Below, one piece after another: positions 7,817 through 50,186 of a stretch of DNA of 60,852 bases. The DNA lies in the NCBI GenBank assembly GCA_964484655.1, contig CAZAFA010000004.1, positions 1-60,852 on the forward strand. The letters are read 5' to 3'. Position 1 is the first letter of the stretch. The number at the start of each line of letters is the position of its first letter. Under the pieces are notes generated by a model. That model worked only from the letters and a program-made list of their open reading frames with translations, did no database searches and was not told the origin of the DNA. The stretch is from an uncultured Candidatus Saccharibacteria bacterium (GTDB taxonomy: Bacteria; Patescibacteriota; Minisyncoccia; UBA6257; 2-01-FULL-56-20). The position numbers and the translations under genes were made by a program.

Positions 7817-10237
7817 TCAGCGCCCGGTCTGCGTATCGTTGGTCAGGGTTGGCAAGCTATTTGGCAAGGGTTTCGTTCCCTGTTGGGATACATCTCCTAC
7901 GCACATGTTTGGACCCTGATGAAGCCCAGGGAACTGGATGCTCGCTACCTTCTTCCCTAGCGGGTTGAGCATCCGGTCGCGACAGGAGCTCATGCTGCTG
8001 TCCCTGCCCGGGAAGATGTTCTCGGGACTGTCGGTATGCGTGGCAGCGAAATACACTTCGCGCGAGCCACGCAGCGTGACTCCGCTGTCGCGCGCGTATG
8101 TCGCGTCAGCGAATACGTTATTAGCACTGAGGAGGTAGGTCTTCCCTGCGACATACAAGCCTTCGGTAAGGTCGCTGTCGCGGACAAAGATCGGGAAGGG
8201 CGCCCACCCATTCCTCCAGTGAACGTAGAGCGCATGCTTCGTGTTCCTGGCACTCATGTTCTCGATGCGGATGCCGGACTGCCGTTCGATGGATACGCAC
8301 GCACCTGCCCGTCCATCGACGTTGTTGACGATTCCCTGGACGCCGGTGCAGGTCAGTCCCCTGAACGAGAGGTGCCCGCCGCCGTTGATGACTACGCCTG
8401 CCTGATCGCGCTGCATGCCGCTGATGACTATATCCTCGAGGTTCCAGTTCGAGCTGTTCTGGGTCTTGAACTCCATGCCACGCTGGTTGCCGACGAGGCG
8501 AATATTGCGAGCCGCTACCGAGTCCACTTGCGGCTGGGCGTGACCAAACGTTCCGGTGTCGTGCGTGACATAGAAACCGCGCGTGAATCCAGAAATCTCG
8601 AGGTTGGAGAAGCTATGATCGCTGCTCACGCCGCGATCTCCTGAGATCTCGATAGCAGTGGTATTCTGCGAAAGTGCATTCGCCGCCACCGCGCGGAGGA
8701 CCATGTTGTCTATATGGAGGGATCGTGGCGAAATCGGCATTGACTGCAGGGCGCGCAGCTGGAACAAAGGCCGATTGGTGCCGGTGAACTCTACGATTGC
8801 ACCGTTCTCTCCCTGGATCATGATGCCGGGGCCGAGGGCCAGGGTCCCGCTGACGCGGTAGCGGCCCTCGGGGAAGATGATGATGCTCCGCTGCCATACG
8901 GCAGGATTGTCCCGCAGCGCACGGCGTATGGCCTCCGTGTCATCCGTGATGCCATCTCCCTTCGCGCCATACGCCTTCACGTTGAACCTCGCGTCACGGG
9001 CGATGGTATCGATGCCGGCGAAGCTCAGACTCCCTTTCGCGAATTGAGCGCGCACTGCCGATACGTCGAGGTTGCAGGCACCCGGCTGCCGGTTCAGCCC
9101 CGGGAATCCCTGGCTGGGAACCGCGGTGTACGGATTGCCCGTCGAGAACACGTCGCCGCAGCTATATACCTGCGATCCCGTTCCGGTTCCCGTGAAGCGG
9201 ATGCGGCCGCCCTTCGTCGCTTCCGTGAAGAATCGGTTCCCAAACGTGTAGAGAGTACTCCTTCTCTCTACGGTCCCCATGATCGCCGAGTTATCAAAAT
9301 AGATGGCGTGCGGCGAAGTCTCGGTGATGCGGAATCCTTCCTTCGGTCCCTCGACGTGCGCTTCCATGAAGTAGAGCTCGCCCGACCGCTGTCCTATCTC
9401 CATGCAGCTCTCGGCATTGAAATGCGTAGAGGCGCATGAAAGCTGCAGGAAGGACATACGACCGGCTCGCACTAGATTGACACCGTACTGGCCATGATCC
9501 ATCTCGACGACGTTCAAGTTCTGCACGTCCCAATCCTGCGCGTTCAGGCTGTTCACGTGGAGCGCCACGTGGTTCACATATGTCGAGATATTACGCATCC
9601 GCACCTGCGTAACTGCCGGATTCCGTGAGGAGCGCTTCGGTCCTGCAGCAATGGCATAGGTAAAATTCGTGATGCGTAGATTCTCCAGCTCTATCTCGCT
9701 TGTACGCTGGGAGGAACGGTCATCGCCGAGCCGTATGCCGGTGGTCTGCTCCTCGCGGATCCTCGTAATGTCGGTGCGCGGATACACATTCCATCCTGGC
9801 GTCATCGAGCGAAGCTCGATGTTGCGAATGCGTACGTTGCGCGCTCCCTGCTGCACTTCAAGGAGAGCCTTCCCTTGTGCGTTCAAGCTCCCCTGGGCGC
9901 CTAGTACTAGCATGCACGGCCCCACCTCTCCCGAACCTGATCCCTGAATCGTGATATTCGAGGGAACCACGATCGTATCGGTGACCATGTATTTGCCCGG
10001 TCCGAAGAAGAGCACGCCTCCACCTTGTGCGGAAAGTTTGCTGATACCTGAACGGATCTCCGCCGTAGCATCCACGTACGTATCGATGGTCCTGCCCTTT
10101 ATCTCGATGAGCTGAGCTCCACCATTACCACCTGGGAAGTTGAGCGCATCTGCAAGGTACGGCGCCGCGAGCGCAATGACGCCGGCTACGATCGCTACCG
10201 CGCTAGCAAACGCGGTGATTTTGGGGGAGATCCTCAT
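7817..10237 (-). CDS. Secreted protein with two tandem Pectate_lyase_3-like right-handed beta-helix domains
   Basis: Signal peptide; domain 1 DATAEIRSGI...GGGVLFFGPGKY; domain 2 FNVKAYGAKGDGITDDTEAIRRAL...FPEGRY; internal duplication visible. Confidence 0.75.
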   Translation of the reverse strand: MRISPKITAFASAVAIVAGVIALAAPYLADALNFPGGNGGAQLIEIKGRTIDTYVDATAEIRSGISKLSAQGGGVLFFGPGKYMVTDTIVVPSNITIQGSGSGEVGPCMLVLGAQGSLNAQGKALLEVQQGARNVRIRNIELRSMTPGWNVYPRTDITRIREEQTTGIRLGDDRSSQRTSEIELENLRITNFTYAIAAGPKRSSRNPAVTQVRMRNISTYVNHVALHVNSLNAQDWDVQNLNVVEMDHGQYGVNLVRAGRMSFLQLSCASTHFNAESCMEIGQRSGELYFMEAHVEGPKEGFRITETSPHAIYFDNSAIMGTVERRSTLYTFGNRFFTEATKGGRIRFTGTGTGSQVYSCGDVFSTGNPYTAVPSQGFPGLNRQPGACNLDVSAVRAQFAKGSLSFAGIDTIARDARFNVKAYGAKGDGITDDTEAIRRALRDNPAVWQRSIIIFPEGRYRVSGTLALGPGIMIQGENGAIVEFTGTNRPLFQLRALQSMPISPRSLHIDNMVLRAVAANALSQNTTAIEISGDRGVSSDHSFSNLEISGFTRGFYVTHDTGTFGHAQPQVDSVAARNIRLVGNQRGMEFKTQNSSNWNLEDIVISGMQRDQAGVVINGGGHLSFRGLTCTGVQGIVNNVDGRAGACVSIERQSGIRIENMSARNTKHALYVHWRNGWAPFPIFVRDSDLTEGLYVAGKTYLLSANNVFADATYARDSGVTLRGSREVYFAATHTDSPENIFPGRDSSMSSCRDRMLNPLGKKVASIQFPGLHQGPNMCVGDVSQQGTKPLPNSLPTLTNDTQTGR

Positions 10238-19921: not shown

Positions 19922-19954
19922 AAACGACGAGGCCCCTCCCGGGGCCTCGTTTTT
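19922..19954. terminator. Bidirectional intrinsic terminator
   Basis: ACGAGGCCCC-TCCC-GGGGCCTCGT followed by TTTT and preceded by AAA; lies between convergent genes. Confidence 0.8.
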
Positions 19955-20778: not shown

Positions 20779-20806
20779 GCGCACACGGTATCCGAGCGCG
20801 CGCGTT

Positions 20807-20840
20807 AAAAAAAGCCCGGAAGGTCGACGGACCCTCCGGG
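20807..20840 (-). terminator. Intrinsic terminator
   Basis: Minus strand CCCGGAGGGT-CCGTCG-ACCTTCCGGG-C-T7; 10-bp stem with one G.U pair. Confidence 0.75.
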
Positions 20841-20910
20841 ATCGGCTCGAGGCCTAACGGCGGAGCTGATGAGCTCCGCATCCATGCTGGGCCCTTCCGC
20901 GTCTCGCGTC

Positions 20911-20933
20911 AAAAAGCGGCCCCCGAAGGGGCC
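20911..20933 (-). terminator. Intrinsic terminator
   Basis: Minus strand GGCCCC-TTCG-GGGGCC-GC-TTTTT. Confidence 0.75.
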
Positions 20934-21028
20934 ATAAAATCCAAAAGGCAGAAGAGAGGGACTCGGCAGGACAGGCAGCGCTTACCGGGAAGCATGGGAG
21001 CGCCGTGTCGCGCGTCCTGGCGGGAGCA
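20911..21028 (-). ncRNA. Candidate sRNA 1 (unassigned)
   Basis: TATACT at 21040-21035, no start codon at the leaderless position, nested stems, ends in the 20911 terminator. Confidence 0.4.
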
Positions 21029-21043
21029 AGCTCCAGTATACCG

Positions 21044-22492
21044 CTAGCGCTCGATACGCGGGAAGAGCGGCGCCGGGAGCGTCTCGCCCGCGGCGACCGC
21101 GCCGAGGATAGCCGCGCTCGTGTTCGGCATGAAGGGCGCGAGCAGCGCGCCGACCGCCCACAGCCTGCCGAGCACATCCTCGAGGTCGCGGCGCGCCTTC
21201 TCGGGGTCGGTGGCGATCGTCTTGTACGGCTCGTTCTCCTGGATGAACTTGTCCCCCGCGCGTACCTCGTCCCAGACGCGCGCCATCGCGTCGTTGAAGG
21301 AGTACGCGTCGAGCAGCGCGGCGACCTCCTGCGCGCGCGAGTCGTCGCGCCAGAACGTCTCCGCGTCCGGCCGCGCACCGAGGCGGACGCCCGCCTTCGC
21401 TGCCATGGCGAGAGTGCGCGCCACGAAGTTGCCGAGGCCCTTGGCGAGATGCCCCGCGTACGCGTGCTCGAAGCGCTCCCAGGAGAACTCGCTGTCCTCG
21501 GTCGGGTGGATCTCCGCGAGCAGGAACCAGCGGACGGAGTCCGTGCCATACCGCGACACCGCCTCGTAGGGGTCGATGACGTTCCCCAGGCTCTTGCTCA
21601 TCTTCTGGCCGCCCGCGCCCGTGATGAATCCGTGTATGAATATCTGCCTGCTGTTCGGCAGACCCGCGGAGAGCAGCATCGCCTGCCACATCGCCGCCTG
21701 GAAGCGCACCTGGTCCTTCCCGGCGACCTGCACGCCCGGCCAGAAACGCCCGTACTCGGGCCCGTCCGGCCAGCCAAGCGTCGAGATGTAGTTCACGAGC
21801 GCGTCGAACCAGACGTACATGACGTGGTCCGGGTCGTTCGGCACCGGGACGCCCCACGGCATCTTGTCCGCGCGCCGGCTGATGCTGAAATCGTTCAGGC
21901 CCGAGGCGACGAAAGAGCGGATCTCCGCGAGGCGGTGCGCCGGCACCACGAAGCCGGGCGTGCCGTCGTAGAGCGCGAGCAGTCGATCCTGGTACCGCGA
22001 GAAGCGGAAGAAGTAGTTCTCCTCCTCGATCTCCTCGATGGGCGTCGTCGGATGCAGCGGACAGAAGCCGTCCACGAGCTCGGAGTCGGTCTTCTCGAGC
22101 TCGCATCCCACGCAGTACCGCATGCGATACGCCTTCTTGTATATATCCCCTGCGGCTGCGCACCTATCCCAGAACGCCTGCGCCGCCCGGACGTGATGAT
22201 CGTCCGTGGTCCGAATGAACCGGTCCCAGTCGACGTCGAGCGCCTGCCGGAGCGCTTGGAACTTCGCCGCGTACTCGTCCACGTAGGCCTGTGGCGTGAC
22301 GCCGGCCTTCTCCGCGGCACGGAGGATCTTCACGCCGTGTTCGTCCGAGCCCATGTTGAAGAGCGTCTCATGGCCGCGCAGCCGCTTCGCGCGCACGAGC
22401 GCGTCGGCCTGGACCAGCTCGAGCGCGAACCCGATGTGCGGCGCTGCGTTGACGTACGGGATCGTGGTCGTGAGGTAGTACGGCTCCCTCAT
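21044..22492 (-). CDS. metG: Methionyl-tRNA synthetase (short form)
   Basis: YLTTTIPYVNAAPHIG, GSDEHG, YVWFDALVNY, KMSKS; no C-terminal tRNA-binding appendage. Confidence 0.97.
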   Translation of the reverse strand: MREPYYLTTTIPYVNAAPHIGFALELVQADALVRAKRLRGHETLFNMGSDEHGVKILRAAEKAGVTPQAYVDEYAAKFQALRQALDVDWDRFIRTTDDHHVRAAQAFWDRCAAAGDIYKKAYRMRYCVGCELEKTDSELVDGFCPLHPTTPIEEIEEENYFFRFSRYQDRLLALYDGTPGFVVPAHRLAEIRSFVASGLNDFSISRRADKMPWGVPVPNDPDHVMYVWFDALVNYISTLGWPDGPEYGRFWPGVQVAGKDQVRFQAAMWQAMLLSAGLPNSRQIFIHGFITGAGGQKMSKSLGNVIDPYEAVSRYGTDSVRWFLLAEIHPTEDSEFSWERFEHAYAGHLAKGLGNFVARTLAMAAKAGVRLGARPDAETFWRDDSRAQEVAALLDAYSFNDAMARVWDEVRAGDKFIQENEPYKTIATDPEKARRDLEDVLGRLWAVGALLAPFMPNTSAAILGAVAAGETLPAPLFPRIER

Positions 22493-23514
22493 ACCCGGGG
22501 AAGCGGAATCTCTGCCGCGGCTACCGCCTCCTGCCGGCGGCGCGCGATCTCCTCAAGGATTTCCTGCACGACGGCCGCGGCCGGGACGGCCGCCAAGGTC
22601 CCCATGACGCCGCCGAGCTGGTAGCCGAGCAGGAGCGACGTGATGACGACGACCGGATGCAATCCGACCGCTTGACGCGTCAGGAGCGGCACGAGCACGT
22701 TCGCCTCGATCTGGTGGATGGAGAAGAAGATCAACAGCGTCCAGAGCGCGGAGAGCGGCGCCGTCACCAGCGTGATGCCGACAGCCACGACGCCCGCGAC
22801 GATCGGGCCCAGCAGCGGCACGAGCTCGCAGAGGCCGGCAATCAGGCCGAGGATCGCCGCCTGCTCAACTCCAACCAGCCAGAGTGCGAACCAGGTCAGG
22901 GTGCCGACGATGATGCCGAGCAGCACCTGCGCGCGGAACCAGTTCCCGATCTTGCGCCGCGAGCGGCGGTACACGCGGAGCACGGGCTCCTCCATGGAAC
23001 CCGGGAGCGCCATGCGGATAAACTGCTCGATGCCCGCGCGCGAGAGCGACAGGTAGAAGGCGCTCACGAGAACGGTCACGAGGATGATGAGCGGCTCGAG
23101 GCCGCGCGATGCTGCCGCGACGCCGGCGCCCCCGCCGGAGAGCACGCGATCGGAGAGGCGCGAGAGCGTGGCGGACAGGTTCGCCGAGTTCGCGAGAGGC
23201 GCGAGCCACTCGGTCGCAAGCTCCCGGTCGAACCGCGCGACGACCTTGACCAGGTCGCCGAGGATCTGCGGGATGACAGTGTACGCCACCGCGACGGTAG
23301 CGAGGAGCAGGAACAGGAAGACCGCCACGACGCCCAGGGTGCGCGAGATGCCGCGCCGCTCGAGCCAGTCCACGATGAAGTCCAGGGCCGACGAGACCAC
23401 GATGGCCAGGAACAGGCCAAGGAAGATCTTCCACGCCACGAAGGCGAGCACGACGGCGAGCGTCACCGCCACGAGCCGCCAGAGGGAGGCCCAGGTGATA
23501 TCGAGCGTGAGCAT
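22489..23514 (-). CDS. AI-2E (PerM/YhhT) family transporter
   Basis: 341 aa multi-TM protein; GLCELVPLLGP, IHQIEANVLVP, GLHPVVVI motifs. Confidence 0.85.
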   Translation of the reverse strand: MLTLDITWASLWRLVAVTLAVVLAFVAWKIFLGLFLAIVVSSALDFIVDWLERRGISRTLGVVAVFLFLLLATVAVAYTVIPQILGDLVKVVARFDRELATEWLAPLANSANLSATLSRLSDRVLSGGGAGVAAASRGLEPLIILVTVLVSAFYLSLSRAGIEQFIRMALPGSMEEPVLRVYRRSRRKIGNWFRAQVLLGIIVGTLTWFALWLVGVEQAAILGLIAGLCELVPLLGPIVAGVVAVGITLVTAPLSALWTLLIFFSIHQIEANVLVPLLTRQAVGLHPVVVITSLLLGYQLGGVMGTLAAVPAAAVVQEILEEIARRRQEAVAAAEIPLPRV

Positions 23515-23567
23515 GCCTCATTCTAGCGCAGTCCCGGGCCCGAGAGGAAAAGGGCTATACTCGGCCC

Positions 23568-24161
23568 ATGAGCGACCGCCTGCCCAGCCTCCTGGAACTG
23601 ATGCGCCTGATCGACCGCTTCCAGCAGGTGGAGCGGGCGCTCCCTCGCCGGGGCGAGGACCGGCTCGAGAACGACGTCGAGCACTCCTACCAGCTCGCCA
23701 TGGCGGCCTGGTATCTCAACGCTACCGAGGAACTCGGCATGGACAGCGGACTCCTTCTCGCCTTCGCGCTGGTCCATGACCTCGCCGAGGTCTACGCCGG
23801 CGACACGTACGCCTATACCGCGGATGCCGACGAGCGCGCGACCAAGGAGGCGCGCGAGGCTGCCGCGGTAGCGCGCATCGCCGACGAGTTCCCCGAGTTC
23901 CCGGACCTCGTCGAGACGATCCATACGTACGAGCGCCGCGACACGCGCGAGGCGCGCTTCGTCTACGCTCTCGACAAGCTCCTCCCCATTCTCGGCAACT
24001 ATCTCGACAACGGGCGCATGTGGCGCGCGAAGGGCGTCACGCTCGCGATGCTGAAGGACTACAAGCAGGAGAAGATCGCTGAGTCTCCCGAGGCCTACCG
24101 GCACTACGAGGCCATCATCGCCATCCTCGAGGAGCGGCCCGACCTGTTCCCTTCCGCCTAG
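23568..24161 (+). CDS. HD-domain phosphohydrolase (YfbR/HD_3-like)
   Basis: ENDVEHS, ALVHDLAE...GD, ALDKL. Confidence 0.88.
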   Translation: MSDRLPSLLELMRLIDRFQQVERALPRRGEDRLENDVEHSYQLAMAAWYLNATEELGMDSGLLLAFALVHDLAEVYAGDTYAYTADADERATKEAREAAAVARIADEFPEFPDLVETIHTYERRDTREARFVYALDKLLPILGNYLDNGRMWRAKGVTLAMLKDYKQEKIAESPEAYRHYEAIIAILEERPDLFPSA

Positions 24162-25570
24162 CTATTGAGGACCGCGATATCGTCCTCAAACCTGTCCGCG
24201 CGCGAGATGACTGCCTGGCCGTACGTGTTGACGAAGCGCATGTAGTTGCCGCCGGCGTAGTACTTCGCCGCTGCGTAAAGCTCGGACTGGCGATTACCTG
24301 CTACGGCGCCGGCGTCCTTCATATAAAGAGCGGTCGCCATGAACGCGTCCATGTTGTTCCAGGGCGACGGCGGCCGGTGCCCGGTCAGGGAGGCGATACG
24401 CGGCGCGTACCCCTTCCATGTCGCCGGCATGAACTGCGCGGGTCCCATGGCGCCGCCATACGCGCCGTCGCTGACGATCGCGCAGGAGACCATAACCGAG
24501 TCCGGATCGATGCCGAGCTCTGCCGTGATCGCGAGGAAGATCGGCTGCTGCGTCGGGCTCATCGACGTCTTGTAGTTGCAGCGGCCCACGTTCGCGCCGA
24601 GCGCGGACTCGCGGTCGAGCACGGCGAGGATGAGGGCCGGGCGCACGCCGGTCGCGTCGCCGGCGGCCTTCGCCAGCTTGTACGCATCGCCGAACTGCAT
24701 CTGCCCGCCGCCGAGCAGCGAGAACAGGCGCGCGCGGATCGCGGCCGCCTTGGCCTGCGTATCCTTGAGGAGCTGCTGGTACCGGGCCTCCTGACCTTTC
24801 GTCTGCGTCAGCAGGCTCTTCTTCTCGTCGGCGACCTGCGCCGCGCGCTGGCGCTGGAGCGCCTGGAACTGCGCGGCGGTCATGGCGTCCTGGCGCGCGT
24901 CGGAAAGCGCGATCTTGCTGCTCTCGAGCTGGCCCTTGAGGCTCGTGATGGTGCCGATGGTAGCCTTCACGTTGCTCTGGAGCGCCTGGATGCCGTCGAC
25001 GTCGGTCACGAATTCCGAGAGCCGCCCATTCTTGAGCATGATCTCGAGCAGCGACGAGCGGTCAGTGCGGTACGTCTCGCGGATGAGCTGTGCGAGCACC
25101 TCCTGGTTCCTAGCCAAGGAGTCCTGCGTGACCGTGATCTGCGTCTCCGTGGACCCGATCTTCCTGTCAAGGATGCTCATGCTCACCTGCAGCGCCTTGA
25201 TCTGCGCGTTCAGCGAGGAGATCTGGGCGTTGAGCTTGCCGACCTCGCTGCCGAGGGACTTGCCCTGCGCGCGGTACGACTCGACCTGCTTCTGGTGCTG
25301 CGCGATCTCGCGCTCATACTGCTCGAGCTGCGCCTGCAGCTGCGCGCGCTCGTCGCTCGGGCTCTGCGCGAACGTGTAGCTGGTCGGCGCGTACACCGAC
25401 CCCGCGACGAAGCCGCCGATGCTCGCCAGGGCGACGGCGGTCTTCGCGCCGAACAGCCAGTACGCGGAACGCCGGCGGCGGCGCGGCGCGAGCGAGACGC
25501 TCACCGAAGCGGAACGGAACGTGCTCGCCCCGGGGCGCGCTATGTCGGTGGTAATGCGTGGCTTGGGCAT
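24158..25570 (-). CDS. Membrane-anchored coiled-coil protein with a C-terminal lytic transglycosylase (SLT_2-like) domain
   Basis: TM segment, long heptad stalk, then LDRESALG and GAMGPAQFMPATW. Start placed at 25570 to avoid overlap with rplY. Confidence 0.85.
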   Translation of the reverse strand: MPKPRITTDIARPGASTFRSASVSVSLAPRRRRRSAYWLFGAKTAVALASIGGFVAGSVYAPTSYTFAQSPSDERAQLQAQLEQYEREIAQHQKQVESYRAQGKSLGSEVGKLNAQISSLNAQIKALQVSMSILDRKIGSTETQITVTQDSLARNQEVLAQLIRETYRTDRSSLLEIMLKNGRLSEFVTDVDGIQALQSNVKATIGTITSLKGQLESSKIALSDARQDAMTAAQFQALQRQRAAQVADEKKSLLTQTKGQEARYQQLLKDTQAKAAAIRARLFSLLGGGQMQFGDAYKLAKAAGDATGVRPALILAVLDRESALGANVGRCNYKTSMSPTQQPIFLAITAELGIDPDSVMVSCAIVSDGAYGGAMGPAQFMPATWKGYAPRIASLTGHRPPSPWNNMDAFMATALYMKDAGAVAGNRQSELYAAAKYYAGGNYMRFVNTYGQAVISRADRFEDDIAVLNS

Positions 25571-25604
25571 CCGAAACGTATCAGACGCGTCGCGGCGCTG
25601 CTCC

Positions 25605-26243
25605 TTACGAAGCTTCCGCTGACTCGTCGCCGTCCTCCTTCTCCTCTCCCTCGACCGCAACGTCCTCGACCGTCATATCGGCCTGCGGCTCCTCCTCCGG
25701 GGTAACCTCGGCGATCGAGGCGACGACCGCGTCCTCGGCAGTCAACAGCTCCACGCCGGCGGGAAGCTTGATGTCCTTGGCGTGCACGGAAGCGCCGAGC
25801 TCGGCGAGCCCCTCGAGGCTGACGACCGCCTCGTGTGGGATCTTCTCGGGCAGCCCCTCGACCTCGATCTCGTGCAGGTTCTTCAGGAGGGTCCCGAGGC
25901 CATCCTTCACGGCCGGCGCCTCGCCTTCGAACGAGATCGCGATCGCGGCCTTGATCTTCTCGCCCGCCTTCACCGCGTGGAAATCGACATGGGCGATCTC
26001 GCCGGTATGCGCGTCGACCGTCCAGTCGTGCGCGAGGACGCGGCGCTCCTTGCCCTCGACGCCGAGCATGATGATGCCGGTGTGCCCGACTTCCTTGATC
26101 GCCTTCGTGAGTTCGCGCGCGGAAACGGCGACGTGGAGGTTCTCAATCCCGTGCCCGTACACCTCGCCCGGCACCTGCCCCTCCTTGCGGAGCGCGGCGA
26201 CCTTCTTGCCGAATACGGTGCGAGTCTGTGCAGCGAGCTTCAT
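25605..26243 (-). CDS. rplY: 50S ribosomal protein L25/Ctc
   Basis: LRKEGQVPGEVYGHG, HVDF, LPEKIP, acidic tail; TATACT 6 nt before the ATG. Confidence 0.95.
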   Translation of the reverse strand: MKLAAQTRTVFGKKVAALRKEGQVPGEVYGHGIENLHVAVSARELTKAIKEVGHTGIIMLGVEGKERRVLAHDWTVDAHTGEIAHVDFHAVKAGEKIKAAIAISFEGEAPAVKDGLGTLLKNLHEIEVEGLPEKIPHEAVVSLEGLAELGASVHAKDIKLPAGVELLTAEDAVVASIAEVTPEEEPQADMTVEDVAVEGEEKEDGDESAEAS

Positions 26244-26293
26244 GCGACCAGTATAGCGAGGCACGCAGGGCTTGGCGAGCCTTTTCGCCCAGC

Positions 26294-26315
26294 AAAACCG
26301 GCCCCAAAGGGCCGG
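26294..26315 (-). terminator. Intrinsic terminator
   Basis: Minus strand CCGGCCC-TTTG-GGGCCGG-TTTT. Confidence 0.75.
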
Positions 26316-26401
26316 CGGAATGACTGAAGTGCGGAGAGAACCCGCGTGGAACGATTGGTCAAGCTAGCCCTCTCCGCGCAGCGGAGGTTACATATGCCGC
26401 T
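26294..26401 (-). ncRNA. Candidate sRNA 2 or rplY upstream leader (unassigned)
   Basis: TATACT at 26413-26408, alternative stems, ends in the 26294 terminator. Confidence 0.4.
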
Positions 26402-26415
26402 AGCGGCAGTATACC

Positions 26416-31237: not shown

Positions 31238-31250
31238 GCGTACAGTATAG

Positions 31251-46099: not shown

Positions 46100-47311
46100 T
46101 TACTGAATCGTAGCGGTGAGGCGATACAGTGGGATGAGGATAGACGCGAACAGCAGGCCGACCAGCAGACCGACCACGATCATGAGCGTTGGCTGGATGA
46201 GGTCGACGAGGTTCGAGATCGTCGTGTCGGAATCACGGCCGTAGAAGCCTGCGAGGCGCGCGAACATGCGGTCAAGCTGGCCGGTCGCCTCCCCAACGAC
46301 CACCATCTGTGAGACCAGCGGCGGGAAGTAGTCCGGATACTTCGCCAGTGACGAGGAGAGCGAGGTCCCCTGGCGGACGTCGTCGGCGACGTCCATGAGC
46401 AGGTCCTGGTAGAGCACGTTGTTCACGCTTTGGCCGGCGATCTCGAGCGCCTGCGCCATCGGCACGCCTCCCTTAAGGAGCATCGCGATGGCGTTCGAGA
46501 GGCGCGTGAGCGTCAGCGGGAGGAAGACGCGCTTGAGCAGCGGAAAGCGCAGCTTGAGCTCGTCCCAGAGCGCCTTGCCCTCGTCGGTCTCGGCATAGGC
46601 GATGATCGTGAGGACCACGAAGAACCCGAGGAGCACGACCGCGGGCCACCACGTCCCGAAGAACGCGCCGGCGCCGAGGAGGGCACGCGTATAGAACGGG
46701 AGATCAACGCCGCTCTCGGCGAATACCGGCCCCAGCTGCGGGAACACGAAGCTCACCATGAGGAAGCCGACGACGACGAAGAGGCCGCCGATGATGCCCG
46801 GATAGATCATCGCCGAGCGCGCCTTCGTGATGAGCTCGTACTCCTTCTCCATGTAGTCGGCGAGGAAGCCGGTGACCTCCTCGAGGTTGCCGATGACTTC
46901 CGCCGAGCGGATCATGCTCACGTAGAAGCCCGGGAAGACGTCGCGGTGCCGCTCGAGCGCCTGCGAGAAGGAGAGGCCCGAGGTGATGTCCTCGGCGAGC
47001 TGCTGCACGATGCGGCGGAGCTCGGGCTGGTTCGTCTGCCCGTGGAGCGTCTTGAGCGCCTCGATCAGCGGCAGGCGGGCGCCGAGCAGCGTGGCGAACT
47101 GCCGCGCGAAGATGACCAGGTCCTTCTGCCGCACGCCCGTGAAGCGGCGCACGACGGCGTCATACCAGTGCTTCGAGTCGGCGGAGACCAGCGACAGGAT
47201 GAAGAGGTCGTGGCTCGTGAGGATCGTGATCGCCGCATCGCGGCCGGCCGCCTCGACGAAACCCACCTGGAGCTCGCCTTCCTTCGTCTTGGCCTGGTAC
47301 TTGAAGCGCAT
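46100..47311 (-). CDS. pilC: Type IV pilus platform protein
   Basis: Two T2SSF domains; FARQFATLLGARLP, SAEVIGNLE, GVPMAQAL, GEATGQLD. Confidence 0.95.
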   Translation of the reverse strand: MRFKYQAKTKEGELQVGFVEAAGRDAAITILTSHDLFILSLVSADSKHWYDAVVRRFTGVRQKDLVIFARQFATLLGARLPLIEALKTLHGQTNQPELRRIVQQLAEDITSGLSFSQALERHRDVFPGFYVSMIRSAEVIGNLEEVTGFLADYMEKEYELITKARSAMIYPGIIGGLFVVVGFLMVSFVFPQLGPVFAESGVDLPFYTRALLGAGAFFGTWWPAVVLLGFFVVLTIIAYAETDEGKALWDELKLRFPLLKRVFLPLTLTRLSNAIAMLLKGGVPMAQALEIAGQSVNNVLYQDLLMDVADDVRQGTSLSSSLAKYPDYFPPLVSQMVVVGEATGQLDRMFARLAGFYGRDSDTTISNLVDLIQPTLMIVVGLLVGLLFASILIPLYRLTATIQ

Positions 47312-47340
47312 CTACGGCCGCATTCTAGCAAATTCCCTAT

Positions 47341-47668
47341 AAAGACGTGTCCCCTCATGGGCGTGAGGGGACAGGAAGGTTTTTCACTCAGGGCGAGCTC
47401 GGAAGGGCGGTATGCGCTCTGTCAGGCATCATGGCAACGCAGCACGGGGCGCCTCCCACTGTCCGCAAGGGGTCCGCGGATTCGTAGAGAGCGCTGGCAT
47501 GCTGCCTGACGCAGGGGGGACCACCTTGATATGGGGGGTCGCTTGCTAGCAAGTATCTCCGGCTGAGATTAAGCCGTTTGTATGACGCGCGGGGTTATGA
47601 ACGATATGAATACGCGCGCCTACTGATTCCATCCTAACACGATATCTCCCGCTCGCGCGGGAGATATC
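47341..47668. other. Structured, ORF-free intergenic region inside the pilus locus
   Basis: Hairpins at 47348-47373 (10 bp) and 47641-47668 (12 bp); long-range stem 47421-47433/47498-47510; palindrome 47542-47553. Confidence 0.55.
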
Positions 47669-47690
47669 CACATTCATGAACTGCCAGCGC

Positions 47691-50186
47691 CTACCGCGGC
47701 GCGATCTCCACGCGCGTCCTGACATCGAAGACGCGCACCGTGTCCGTGAGCTCGACGTTCCCGCCGTAGCACGACAGGCGGTACGTCGTCGTGTACGGAG
47801 GCTGGTGTGGCACCGATCCGCGCTCCGTGCCCGTGCCGATCACGCTGCCGCCCTCGGTGTCGTTGCTGACGGTACAGGTCGTCGGCTCGTCGCAGGACCA
47901 GTTCAGCGTCGTCGTCTTCAGCGGCGGCACGAGCAGGGACCGCGGGTTCGCCGCGAAAGTGCACGCTCCCCCTCCGGTGGTGCCGCTCACGACAAGCTCG
48001 GCCTGCCTCGTCAGCCCCGCGTAAGCGGCGGCGACGCCGGTCTCGCCGGCCGCGACTCCGCGGAACCTTCCTCCGCCGAGCGATGCCGCGATGTTCGACG
48101 TAGCGGCCGACCAGGTCGATGCGGCCGTCACGTTCTGTTCCGTCTGGCTGCCGGATCCGTCCGGATCGTAGAACGCCTCGAACGGAGCGATGCCGCCGAC
48201 GGTCGTCACGTTGCGCAGCGGCGAGATGCGCATCGTCGGCGCGGTGGAGGTCGGGTTCCCGGGCGGCTCTACCGGTTCGCCGGTCACGTTGAGACGCGCG
48301 ATGGCCTGCATTCCGGAGTATGACGCGCGCACCTGGGTATTCCCGACTGCGGTCCCGCGCATCCTGCCGGGGCCGACGACCTCGGCGACGCCCGCGGTGC
48401 CGAGCGACCACGTCGAGTCCCCAGTCACTTGCGAGGCCGTCCCCGGGCCGAGCAGGCCGTCAGGGTCGTACCACGAGACATAGTTCGCCTCCGCGCCGAC
48501 GTCGATCAGGCGCAGCGACGGGCTGACCCAGAGCAACGGCTCGTTCGGCGCACCGACGGTCAGGTTGCTGTTGCACGACCCAGGCTGCATGCCCGCCGCC
48601 GAGGCCGCGAAGGTGATGGTCGAGGATCCGGCCGGCGTGTTGGACGCGGTCACCACCGACATCACGATCGTCGCCGATCCGGACGGGCCGATCGAGACCG
48701 TACGCGGCTCGGCCGTGGCGTTCGCGGGAAGCCCGGAGGCCGTGACGGTCACACTCGTCGTCGCCGAAGTGTTCTGGGCGCTGACGGTGACCGGGTACGG
48801 CGCCGTCATACCCGCCGTAACCACCTGCGCCGGCGCCTGGCAGAGGATGCCGATGCTCGAGGTCGAGGTACCGGACACGGAAATCGGGATCTGAGCCTCC
48901 TCGCCGAAGAGATACGGCTCGCTGCTCGCGAGATTGGTCCCCATCTGGAACCTGAGCACGTAATCGCCCGGTGCGCTGGTGCGCAGCTTGAACGGGAAGA
49001 CCGCGCTCACGTTCTGCTGGACCGGAACCGCCGGCGTTTCGGAGATCTCGGTGAGGTAGTACGTGTAAGTCACGCAGGGCTGTCCGGGAGGAGGGGGCTG
49101 AGGCGCTGCCCATGCAGCAGGCACGCCCGCGCGTACGAGCCGCTCGATCCAGGATCCCGGCGCCCGCACGTTCGGATTGGGCGGATCGGGCGGCTCGGGG
49201 CAGATCGTCGCGGTGACCGCCCGCGACGTGTACGTGACCTGGATGACGCGTTCGTACTGGAATGCGGTCGCGGGCGCGTTCGTGCGCGGATCGATCAGCG
49301 TGATGGCCTCCAGGCCGTCGCGACGCATGAGCTTCTCGGTTTGCGAGGTGACGATTCTGGTGAAGGTGCAGCTCGCGCCATCCTCCTGGGGCGGCTCGTT
49401 CACGTTCCAGGAATCGCACTCGCTCGTGCGGCTGAGCTCGGTCAGGGACTGCCAGGCGCGCGAACCGGTGTTACGCATGGTCACCGACGTGTTGCCGTAG
49501 AGCGTCTGCGGGGTCGCGGTCGCCGGAATCGTGGTCGCGACGTAGCGCGCGTCGAGCGTGCTGGGGTCGAGCACGTCGGCCTCGAGACCGATCTTGGCCT
49601 TGTGCACGTCGTGCGTCTTATACGCCCAGCTCGACAGGCCGCCGCCTGCGGCGGTCCATGGCGAATAGGCCATCAGGCCCGAGCCGTCCACCTGGACCTT
49701 GAGCCGCGCATTGCGGATCTGTACGCCGCTCGGCAGCGGCCGGGTCTCGATCCTGACCCTGGCGCAGTTCTGGTTGTCGTTCGAGCTCCCCTCCTGGGCC
49801 CACTCGCCCCAGCCGCCTCCCTGGCTGGCCCAGCCGGACCAGCTGACATTCGTCAGATTATTCCCGCTGCAGCCGTTGTCATCCGAAAGCTGCAGGCCGA
49901 CGCGGAAGTCGCGCGTGAAGCTGCTGCCGGCCGAGAGGCCGACCTTGATACAGTCGAAATCCTTGTTGTTGCCGCCGTCGCCGACGAGCGGCGTCCACCC
50001 GCCGTCCGGATTCGCCGTCGGCGTCGCGCCGGCCTCGCCGCATCCGGAAGCGTTGTCGCCAACGTTGACGGAGACGCTCGGCGCAGGCGCGCTCTGCGCC
50101 TTCACGTACGCTACGAATCCCCCACCGATCGCGAGCGCGAGGACAAGGAGGGAGATGCGAGCGGTCCTGCTGAGATGGGTAAGCAT
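47691..50186 (-). CDS. Large secreted Ig-repeat adhesin-like protein (cassette copy 2)
   Basis: Signal (VKA); Trp/Cys-rich N-domain; two YDPDG Ig-like repeats; C-terminus matches the 921-aa paralog. Confidence 0.75.
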   Translation of the reverse strand: MLTHLSRTARISLLVLALAIGGGFVAYVKAQSAPAPSVSVNVGDNASGCGEAGATPTANPDGGWTPLVGDGGNNKDFDCIKVGLSAGSSFTRDFRVGLQLSDDNGCSGNNLTNVSWSGWASQGGGWGEWAQEGSSNDNQNCARVRIETRPLPSGVQIRNARLKVQVDGSGLMAYSPWTAAGGGLSSWAYKTHDVHKAKIGLEADVLDPSTLDARYVATTIPATATPQTLYGNTSVTMRNTGSRAWQSLTELSRTSECDSWNVNEPPQEDGASCTFTRIVTSQTEKLMRRDGLEAITLIDPRTNAPATAFQYERVIQVTYTSRAVTATICPEPPDPPNPNVRAPGSWIERLVRAGVPAAWAAPQPPPPGQPCVTYTYYLTEISETPAVPVQQNVSAVFPFKLRTSAPGDYVLRFQMGTNLASSEPYLFGEEAQIPISVSGTSTSSIGILCQAPAQVVTAGMTAPYPVTVSAQNTSATTSVTVTASGLPANATAEPRTVSIGPSGSATIVMSVVTASNTPAGSSTITFAASAAGMQPGSCNSNLTVGAPNEPLLWVSPSLRLIDVGAEANYVSWYDPDGLLGPGTASQVTGDSTWSLGTAGVAEVVGPGRMRGTAVGNTQVRASYSGMQAIARLNVTGEPVEPPGNPTSTAPTMRISPLRNVTTVGGIAPFEAFYDPDGSGSQTEQNVTAASTWSAATSNIAASLGGGRFRGVAAGETGVAAAYAGLTRQAELVVSGTTGGGACTFAANPRSLLVPPLKTTTLNWSCDEPTTCTVSNDTEGGSVIGTGTERGSVPHQPPYTTTYRLSCYGGNVELTDTVRVFDVRTRVEIAPR

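Follow-up and report, generated by a model that had tools for sequence, protein, structure and literature searches.

Two short intergenic units on the minus strand of a 60852-nucleotide (nt) stretch of DNA from an uncultured Candidatus Saccharibacteria bacterium (contig CAZAFA010000004.1; this whole stretch is called the window) have the anatomy of small RNA (sRNA) genes. U1 follows metG, the gene for methionyl-tRNA synthetase (MetRS), and U2 follows fba, the gene for a class II aldolase. On balance, we consider them to be two unrelated, lineage-restricted sRNA genes, each bounded by a housekeeping gene's stop codon on one side and an intrinsic terminator on the other. The evidence that bears directly on this reading consists of the sequence anatomy, the match to the promoter type of this genome, conservation above the neutral level, and substitutions in U2 that respect its structure; the transcripts, their ends and any pairing with targets we infer from these. 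A new observation is that a loop near the predicted 5' end of U2 is exactly complementary to GGAGG-N6-AUG. A first-pass annotation of the window had described U1 and U2 as members of a class of stand-alone sRNAs. Each unit does most likely stand alone, as indicated by promoter type, conservation of the -10 box, purifying selection on the 5' parts, the helices of U2, and the terminators. The evidence does not, however, support a new class of operator-covered RNAs.

Anatomy of U1 and U2

Start sites were predicted from the fixed spacing of 6 nt between -10 box and ATG in about 30 leaderless genes of the window, combined with the Y-1/R+1 start rule for bacteria (PMC12641261). The loci of relatives are labelled L161, L162, L164, L166, L168, L169, L171, L173 and L174; L161 holds the only ortholog of U1, and L171 the only ortholog of U2. 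The elements of U1 are as follows.

21046-21044, minus strand: stop codon TAG of metG, followed by cgg, TATACT and GGAGCttGCTCC
21035..21040, minus strand: -10 box TATACT, 3 nt past the metG stop codon, fitting the octamer G[CG]TAnA[AC]T and identical in L161
21023..21034, minus strand: dyad GGAGC-TT-GCTCC, with its centre at the predicted start site 21028/21027
20911..21028, minus strand: predicted transcript 5'-(U)GCUCCCGCC..., ~117-118 nt, starting with U/G at 21028/21027
20947..20960, minus strand: pyrimidine tract CCCUCUCUUCUGCC, directly 5' of the terminator, unpaired in the minimum free energy (MFE) and centroid folds
20911..20933, minus strand: intrinsic terminator GGCCCC-UUCG-GGGGCC + GCUUUUU, with the hairpin at 20933-20918 and the T-run reaching 20911

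The corresponding elements of U2 are listed here.

26418-26416, minus strand: stop codon TGA of fba, followed by gg, TATACT and GCCGCtaGCGGC
26408..26413, minus strand: -10 box TATACT, 2 nt past the fba stop codon, matching the octamer and identical in L171
26396..26407, minus strand: dyad GCCGC-TA-GCGGC, centred on the predicted start A 26401
26295..26401, minus strand: predicted transcript of ~107 nt: 5' hairpin at 26400-26378, then a long hairpin at 26377-26331, then linker and terminator
26383..26396, minus strand: anti-RBS loop CAUAUGUAACCUCC, reverse-complementary without mismatch to GGAGG-UUACAU-AUG (a canonical ribosome-binding site, RBS), containing an AUG-UAA pair
~26316-26299, minus strand: terminator CCGGCCC-TTTG-GGGCCGG, followed by TTTT and an end near 26295

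Stop codon, TATACT, dyad and terminator are placed exactly as in the first-pass annotation for both units, which end ~118 nt (U1) and ~107 nt (U2) later in GC-rich intrinsic terminators. It had also held that no start codon occupies the leaderless position, and we agree: neither ATG nor GTG is found 4-10 nt past either box, and U1 has only a TTG at 5 nt.

The -10 boxes are of the promoter type used by this genome

About 30 genes of the window, which has a GC content of 67%, are leaderless, with a -10 box TANNNT followed after exactly 6 nt by ATG (for example the boxes at 31249, 26255, 46053 and 23556), and the tRNA genes have the same -10 boxes. Several boxes lie directly on or after the preceding stop codon, as in ...TAGcTATACTgtacgcATG at 31249. 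A stop codon followed by TATACT is the ordinary layout of predicted gene slots in this genome. In the window we counted 21 copies of the octamer G[CG]TAnA[AC]T, compared with 6.7 +/- 2.4 expected, a threefold over-representation; 17 of the 21 copies mark gene or tRNA starts (14 start codons and 3 tRNAs), and U1 and U2 account for two of the remaining four. All eight copies of TATACT in the window lie outside open reading frames (ORFs), although about 4-5 would be expected in coding sequence by composition. Since the arrangement of stop codon and -10 box is normal for this genome and both boxes match the octamer, the TATACT boxes of U1 and U2 are very likely active promoters.

Apart from the dyads, the features common to U1 and U2, namely a -10 box that adjoins a stop codon, a length of ~110 nt and a terminator of the GGCCC...GGGCC type, are found generally in this genome. 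The terminator core GGCCCC/GGGGCC, for instance, is also present in a bidirectional terminator at 19926-19951 and in terminators of relatives.

Conservation of the units in relatives

The proteins of the locus (MetRS, TatD from tatD, the aldolase, and ribosomal protein L25 from rplY/ctc) have their best public matches in metagenome-assembled genomes (MAGs) of Patescibacteria/Parcubacteria, with only 58-60% identity, and the DNA of the window is present in three wastewater metagenome runs. Homologs of U1 or U2 were not found in 160 distant loci from genome and metagenome collections (MetG identity <=60%). Eight closer MetRS relatives (75-88% identity) were identified in a large protein collection, and their contigs were compared. 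The gene order fba - L25 - metG - tatD is kept among these closer relatives, while spacer lengths vary (41-277 nt between metG and tatD, 61-276 nt between fba and L25).

The U2 ortholog in L171 is on a 1.6-kb Joint Genome Institute (JGI) contig that encodes an L25 protein 94% identical to that of the window, with 0.75-0.79 identity at four-fold degenerate sites. Of the first 56 nt of U2, 55 are identical in L171 (against a neutral identity of 0.77, P = 8e-6). The single change, C to G, breaks the U2 dyad, which reads GGCGCTAGCGGC in L171. Across the 111-nt RNA there are ~16 differences, with two of them in the 58 paired columns (P ~0.001); both keep the pair (G-U to G-C and C-G to U-G), and the others are in loops and the linker. 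The U2 fold is stable (z = -3.3). Together, these comparisons are good evidence that U2 specifies a structured RNA on this strand, in a very narrow lineage. Neither the MFE nor the centroid fold pairs the loop CAUAUGUAACCUCC, which complements GGAGGUUACAUAUG and is invariant in L171.

The U1 ortholog in L161 is more distant (MetRS identity 88%), and four-fold degenerate sites are saturated (0.53-0.62 identical). Nevertheless, GTATACTGGAGCTTGCTC is identical at 18 of 18 positions. The next base is changed from C to T, so that the dyad reads GGAGCTTGCTCT in L161 and its outer pair is lost on the DNA and would be G-U in RNA. The terminator stems are kept, with the loop GUAC in L161, and from the unpaired tract CCCUCUCUUCU before the terminator CCCUC alone survives. 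As a control, we compared ordinary promoters over the same distance. Seven of seven keep the -10 hexamer in L161, with the discriminator conserved in some only, so that in this respect the U1 box behaves like a real promoter.

The U1 ortholog in L161 also has a second TATACT, missing from the window, which a single nucleotide separates from the terminator hairpin (TATACT-T-GGCCCC-GTAC-GGGGCC, in the stretch 9540-9575). Transcripts initiated at it would begin inside the 5' arm and escape that terminator.

In the relative L164 (76% identity), the whole non-coding region between metG and tatD is replaced by a gene of the purine/uridine phosphorylase family (PF01048, 9449-10224), which is almost spacerless. 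In L166 (1218-3359), MetRS is 83% identical and has 713 amino acids with a C-terminal B3_4 domain (PF03483). The usual home of the B3_4 domain is the beta subunit of phenylalanyl-tRNA synthetase (PheRS).

Separate RNAs or 3' untranslated regions of metG and fba

Several observations weigh against two stand-alone sRNA genes. Among the RNA sequencing runs that were searched, none contains the U1 or U2 stretch. Each unit has one ortholog only. U2 is missing from L161, the closest relative with U1, and from L173 and L169, and is therefore dispensable. The U1 fold is not unusually stable (z = -0.86), and the body of U1 has no supported consensus fold with L161. Within the window, complements of the U2 loop, of the C/U tract of U1 and of the U1 5' end are no more frequent than expected by chance. 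The conserved 5' blocks could also serve the 3' untranslated regions (UTRs) of the upstream mRNAs and not a separate RNA.

This last possibility leads to the alternative that survives best, namely that U1 and U2 are only structured 3' UTRs. The metG and fba mRNAs would then run to 20911 and 26295, the TATACT boxes would be silent or irrelevant, and conservation would reflect the function of the 3' UTR or terminator. It is in keeping with the poor structure of the U1 body and with the U1 and U2 terminators, which look homologous to the metG and fba terminators of relatives that lack the units; in a read-through context, moreover, pairing is possible between either ORF end and sequence past the box. 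We nevertheless regard it as unlikely, though worth taking seriously, because real starts are found at 17 of the 21 octamers of the G[CG]TATACT type, because TATACT is absent from the coding sequence of the window in spite of the expected copies, and because the U1 box has been kept at saturated divergence just like the control promoters.

Probably incidental dyads at the predicted start sites

The first-pass annotation had suggested that a palindromic operator or cruciform-like element covers the start site of each sRNA and controls initiation. Some numbers favor this idea. Both orphan TATACT boxes carry a 5-2-5 inverted repeat centered on the predicted +1 position, and among the 284 TANNNT sites of the window U1 and U2 are the only two with such a repeat at offset 0. 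For at least two of the eight TATACT sites with a dyad, the nominal probability is ~2e-4 under the exact definition. In each ortholog, 11 of the 12 dyad positions are conserved. The probability rises to 0.014 if three offsets and three loop sizes are allowed, and to 0.09 over the 21 strong octamers; we consider the excess of dyads at the two boxes suggestive, not decisive.

Short palindromes of this kind are common in the window. Of the 60852 positions, 158 are the first base of a 5-2-5 inverted repeat, as compared with 122 +/- 11 in Markov shuffles, and there are 38 perfect 12-nt palindromes against ~43 expected. In 2.08 Mb of related loci, no further combination of box and dyad was found, and repeats were not enriched at offset 0 over neighboring offsets. 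The half-sites of the two units differ (GGAGC/GCTCC and GCCGC/GCGGC), so that one regulator could not read both. The symmetry is not maintained either: one of five pairs is lost uncompensated in each ortholog (GGAGCTTGCTCT in L161, GGCGCTAGCGGC in L171), in U2 by the sole change in 56 nt. Because short GC-rich palindromes are common here and the dyads are not maintained in the orthologs, the 12-bp dyads at the predicted start sites are probably incidental. As the predicted start sites coincide with the dyad centers, the RNAs would contain the 3' arm only, and the hairpin could not form in them.

Taking into account also the probabilities of 0.01-0.09 under relaxed definitions, the lack of such a dyad in same-locus units of other lineages, and stems of 5 bp that are too short for cruciforms, we judge it improbable that an operator or cruciform covering the start site defines a class of sRNAs. 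We also considered the dyad as a mask of the sRNA 5' end in read-through transcripts, and rejected this variant as base-pair probabilities were inconsistent across four sequences.

A third, weaker instance reported at 47557-47542 has to be discounted. Its box is GATACT, which is not a TANNNT sequence, and it overlaps one of the 38 palindromes of the window, which occur at the expected frequency. The spacer that contains it (47311-47691, minus strand) is a protein-free region of 380 nt in a pilus locus, with a fold z of -1.9. It contains a long hairpin, GUCAGGCAGCAUGCC...GCCAUGAUGCCUGAC, and another that resembles a terminator and precedes TAGAAT, the promoter of the following gene. No Rfam match was found in this spacer.

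The tetranucleotide CTAG is ~5.6-fold under-represented in the window (33 copies against ~186 expected from composition). Of the eight GCTAGC sites, four are in or adjoin U1, U2 and the third site, and the other four look like TAG stop-codon contexts, which was checked against ORF ends at two of them.

U1 and U2 are unrelated to each other and match no known RNA family

U1 and U2 do not align with each other and have no common sequence or fold. A covariance model of U2 matches only U2 and L171; U1 is reached at E = 0.34 by way of the terminator and a UAGCGG word. Neither unit belongs to a repeat family, and a reading as repeat or mobile element was dropped. The first-pass annotation had pointed to Rfam as a check, which gave no family match for U1, U2 or the third site: Rfam 15, searched at gathering score over the whole window, identified tRNAs only, and thresholds up to E = 10 on the three sites added only chance matches. 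Covariance models of the signal recognition particle (SRP) RNA, 6S RNA, tmRNA, RNase P and tRNA did not match the units.

Coding potential

Neither unit contains a conserved ORF. In U1, the TTG located 5 nt past the box opens a frame of 15 codons in the window and of ~45 unrelated codons in L161, and was rejected as start of a small protein for this lack of conservation; an internal ATG frame of U1 is missing in L161. Stop-codon read-through, with a hairpin 8-9 nt past the stop, was rejected as well: the in-frame extension behind the metG TAG is open in the window, but in L161, whose spacer is shorter by 1 nt, it ends after 8 codons. In U2, the only candidate for a small protein is the AUG-UAA pair. 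The Shine-Dalgarno (SD)-N6-ATG arrangement on the opposite strand of U2 opens only a 17-codon frame, which lacks a promoter and has no counterpart in L162 or L174.

Stop codon, -10 box and terminator are arranged as around an ordinary gene, and U1 and U2 might be relics of lost leaderless genes, in which promoter and terminator have outlived a decayed ORF. The TTG at 5 nt past the U1 box and the rapid turnover seen in the spacer lengths of relatives (41-277 nt) would fit such a history. This explanation is very improbable in our view, since the 5' parts are under purifying selection, the changes in U2 respect its helices, and no ORF was found in either slot in any relative examined.

Neighboring elements

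A second conserved element, module B, lies behind the U1 terminator and before tatD. The genes downstream of both units have leaderless promoters of their own, in agreement with the first-pass annotation.

20807..20912, minus strand: module B
20912-20907, minus strand: TTGACG of module B, followed by a 17-nt spacer and CAGCAT at 20889-20884
20878-20861, minus strand: hairpin CGGAGC/GCUCCG of module B
20840-20815, minus strand: terminator 2 of module B, with the T-run reaching 20807
20785..20790, minus strand: leaderless tatD promoter TACCGT, 6 nt before the ATG at 20778-20776, kept in 7 relatives
26250..26255, minus strand: leaderless L25 promoter TATACT, 6 nt before the ATG at 26243, with the conserved upstream block CTCGCCAAG, kept in relatives

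In L161, the spacing between the -35 and -10 elements of module B is kept and CAGCAT is changed to TAGCAT. The hairpin has one compensatory change from a G-C to an A-U pair and its loop differs in length, while terminator 2 is identical at all but one of its 32 nt (31 of 32). The fold z is -2.65. Module B may represent another small transcript or else the tail end of a read-through RNA.

The position of U2 directly upstream of rplY, together with two mutually exclusive pairings of GCGGAGAG, could point to a cis-acting leader or attenuator of the downstream gene, for example an autoregulatory leader that binds L25, which we consider the least probable of all explanations, as U2 is set apart from the L25 ATG by a terminator followed by a leaderless promoter that is complete and conserved, no SD sequence precedes L25, U2 is missing in L161, L173 and L169 in spite of intact L25 genes and promoters, the alternative pairings leave the terminator untouched, and no Rfam leader matches.

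Other units at the fba-L25 locus

In L161, L173 and L169, the fba-L25 spacer has 61-75 nt and contains only a terminator-like hairpin and the L25 promoter. In other lineages, the spacer contains units that are not homologous to U2 (L162 4037-4219, L174 312-589 and L168 2376-2528), each with a -10-like box, a CCUCC-type (anti-SD) tract and the terminator of the locus, which is homologous across the clade (GCC[CG]GTTCC stems). The L174 unit includes CAUCACAAACCUCCUUAC, in which an anti-AUG is followed after 6 nt by an anti-SD sequence (CAU-N6-CCUCC type); the L162 unit has CAAAUGAUCCUCCUUUUUAC and the L168 unit CUUCCCCUCUCUU. L162 and L174 have in common a CCUCCUU-ACGCC-stem and a terminator with a compensatory pair. 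These sequences suggest that small units turn over at the fba-L25 locus.

Proposed mode of action and comparison with known systems

If U1 and U2 are indeed sRNA genes, each would be driven by a house promoter of the -10-only type (G[CG]TATACT), situated 2-3 nt past a stop codon and placed like ordinary leaderless promoters. Transcription would start 7-8 nt past the box, at U|G in U1 and U|A in U2, and end ~118 nt (U1) or ~107 nt (U2) later at a hairpin and U-run. The same terminator probably ends the upstream mRNA too, in a layout like that of sRNAs which are embedded in a 3' UTR but transcribed from a separate promoter. Both RNAs would expose pyrimidine-rich tracts, and the 13-nt U2 loop is a perfect GGAGG-N6-AUG complement. 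The likeliest action would be base-pairing with the few SD-led mRNAs of a mostly leaderless organism.

Among the sRNAs of enterobacteria, DapZ and MicL are embedded in 3' UTRs and have a promoter of their own. U1 and U2 resemble this type in a promoter at or after the end of the upstream ORF, a terminator that the region would share with the upstream mRNA, a size of ~100 nt, and the conservation of the 5' or seed part and the terminator with a variable middle. They differ in that their promoter follows the ORF rather than lying inside it, that there is no Hfq context, that the host is a Patescibacterium with leaderless mRNAs, that the lineage is very narrow, and that the units are predicted from sequence.

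In Gram-positive bacteria, sRNAs with anti-SD or anti-AUG sequences include the csRNAs of Streptococcus and the C-rich RsaE/RoxS type. Like these, U2 would have an exposed loop complementary to SD sequence, spacer and AUG, and, at a size of ~100 nt, a promoter and terminator to itself; the unpaired C/U tract that adjoins the terminator in U1 is reminiscent of the C-rich sRNAs. In contrast to both, the units have no sequence or Rfam similarity to them and no CiaR-type promoter, U1 has no anti-AUG part, and most mRNAs of the host have no SD sequence.

The rplY/L25 leader of Escherichia coli is an autoregulatory leader of a ribosomal protein gene. U2 is likewise a structured RNA candidate directly upstream of rplY, but unlike the E. 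coli leader it is cut off from rplY by a terminator and the rplY promoter, and it is missing in close relatives with an intact rplY.

Implications

A wider reading can be formulated, in which orphan -10 boxes behind housekeeping genes drive fast-evolving riboregulators of 70-120 nt, whose anti-SD/anti-AUG loops act against the SD-led minority of mRNAs, with functional dyads (for start-site control or for masking of the 5' end in read-through transcripts), so that a lineage-specific regulatory layer of Patescibacteria evolves by turnover in the 3' ends of genes. We regard this combination as doubtful and offer it as speculation.

A practical consequence is an annotation rule for this lineage: G[CG]TAnA[AC]T plus 6 nt would indicate a transcript start, and orphan copies of the octamer flag non-coding units. 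To our knowledge, experiments have revealed almost nothing of how Patescibacteria (candidate phyla radiation, CPR), in which transcription factors are few, regulate their genes. If expressed, U1 and U2 would be new candidate riboregulators for Patescibacteria, one of them with a textbook loop against ribosome-binding sites amid mostly leaderless translation, and they would show that such units can be gained and lost quickly behind housekeeping genes.

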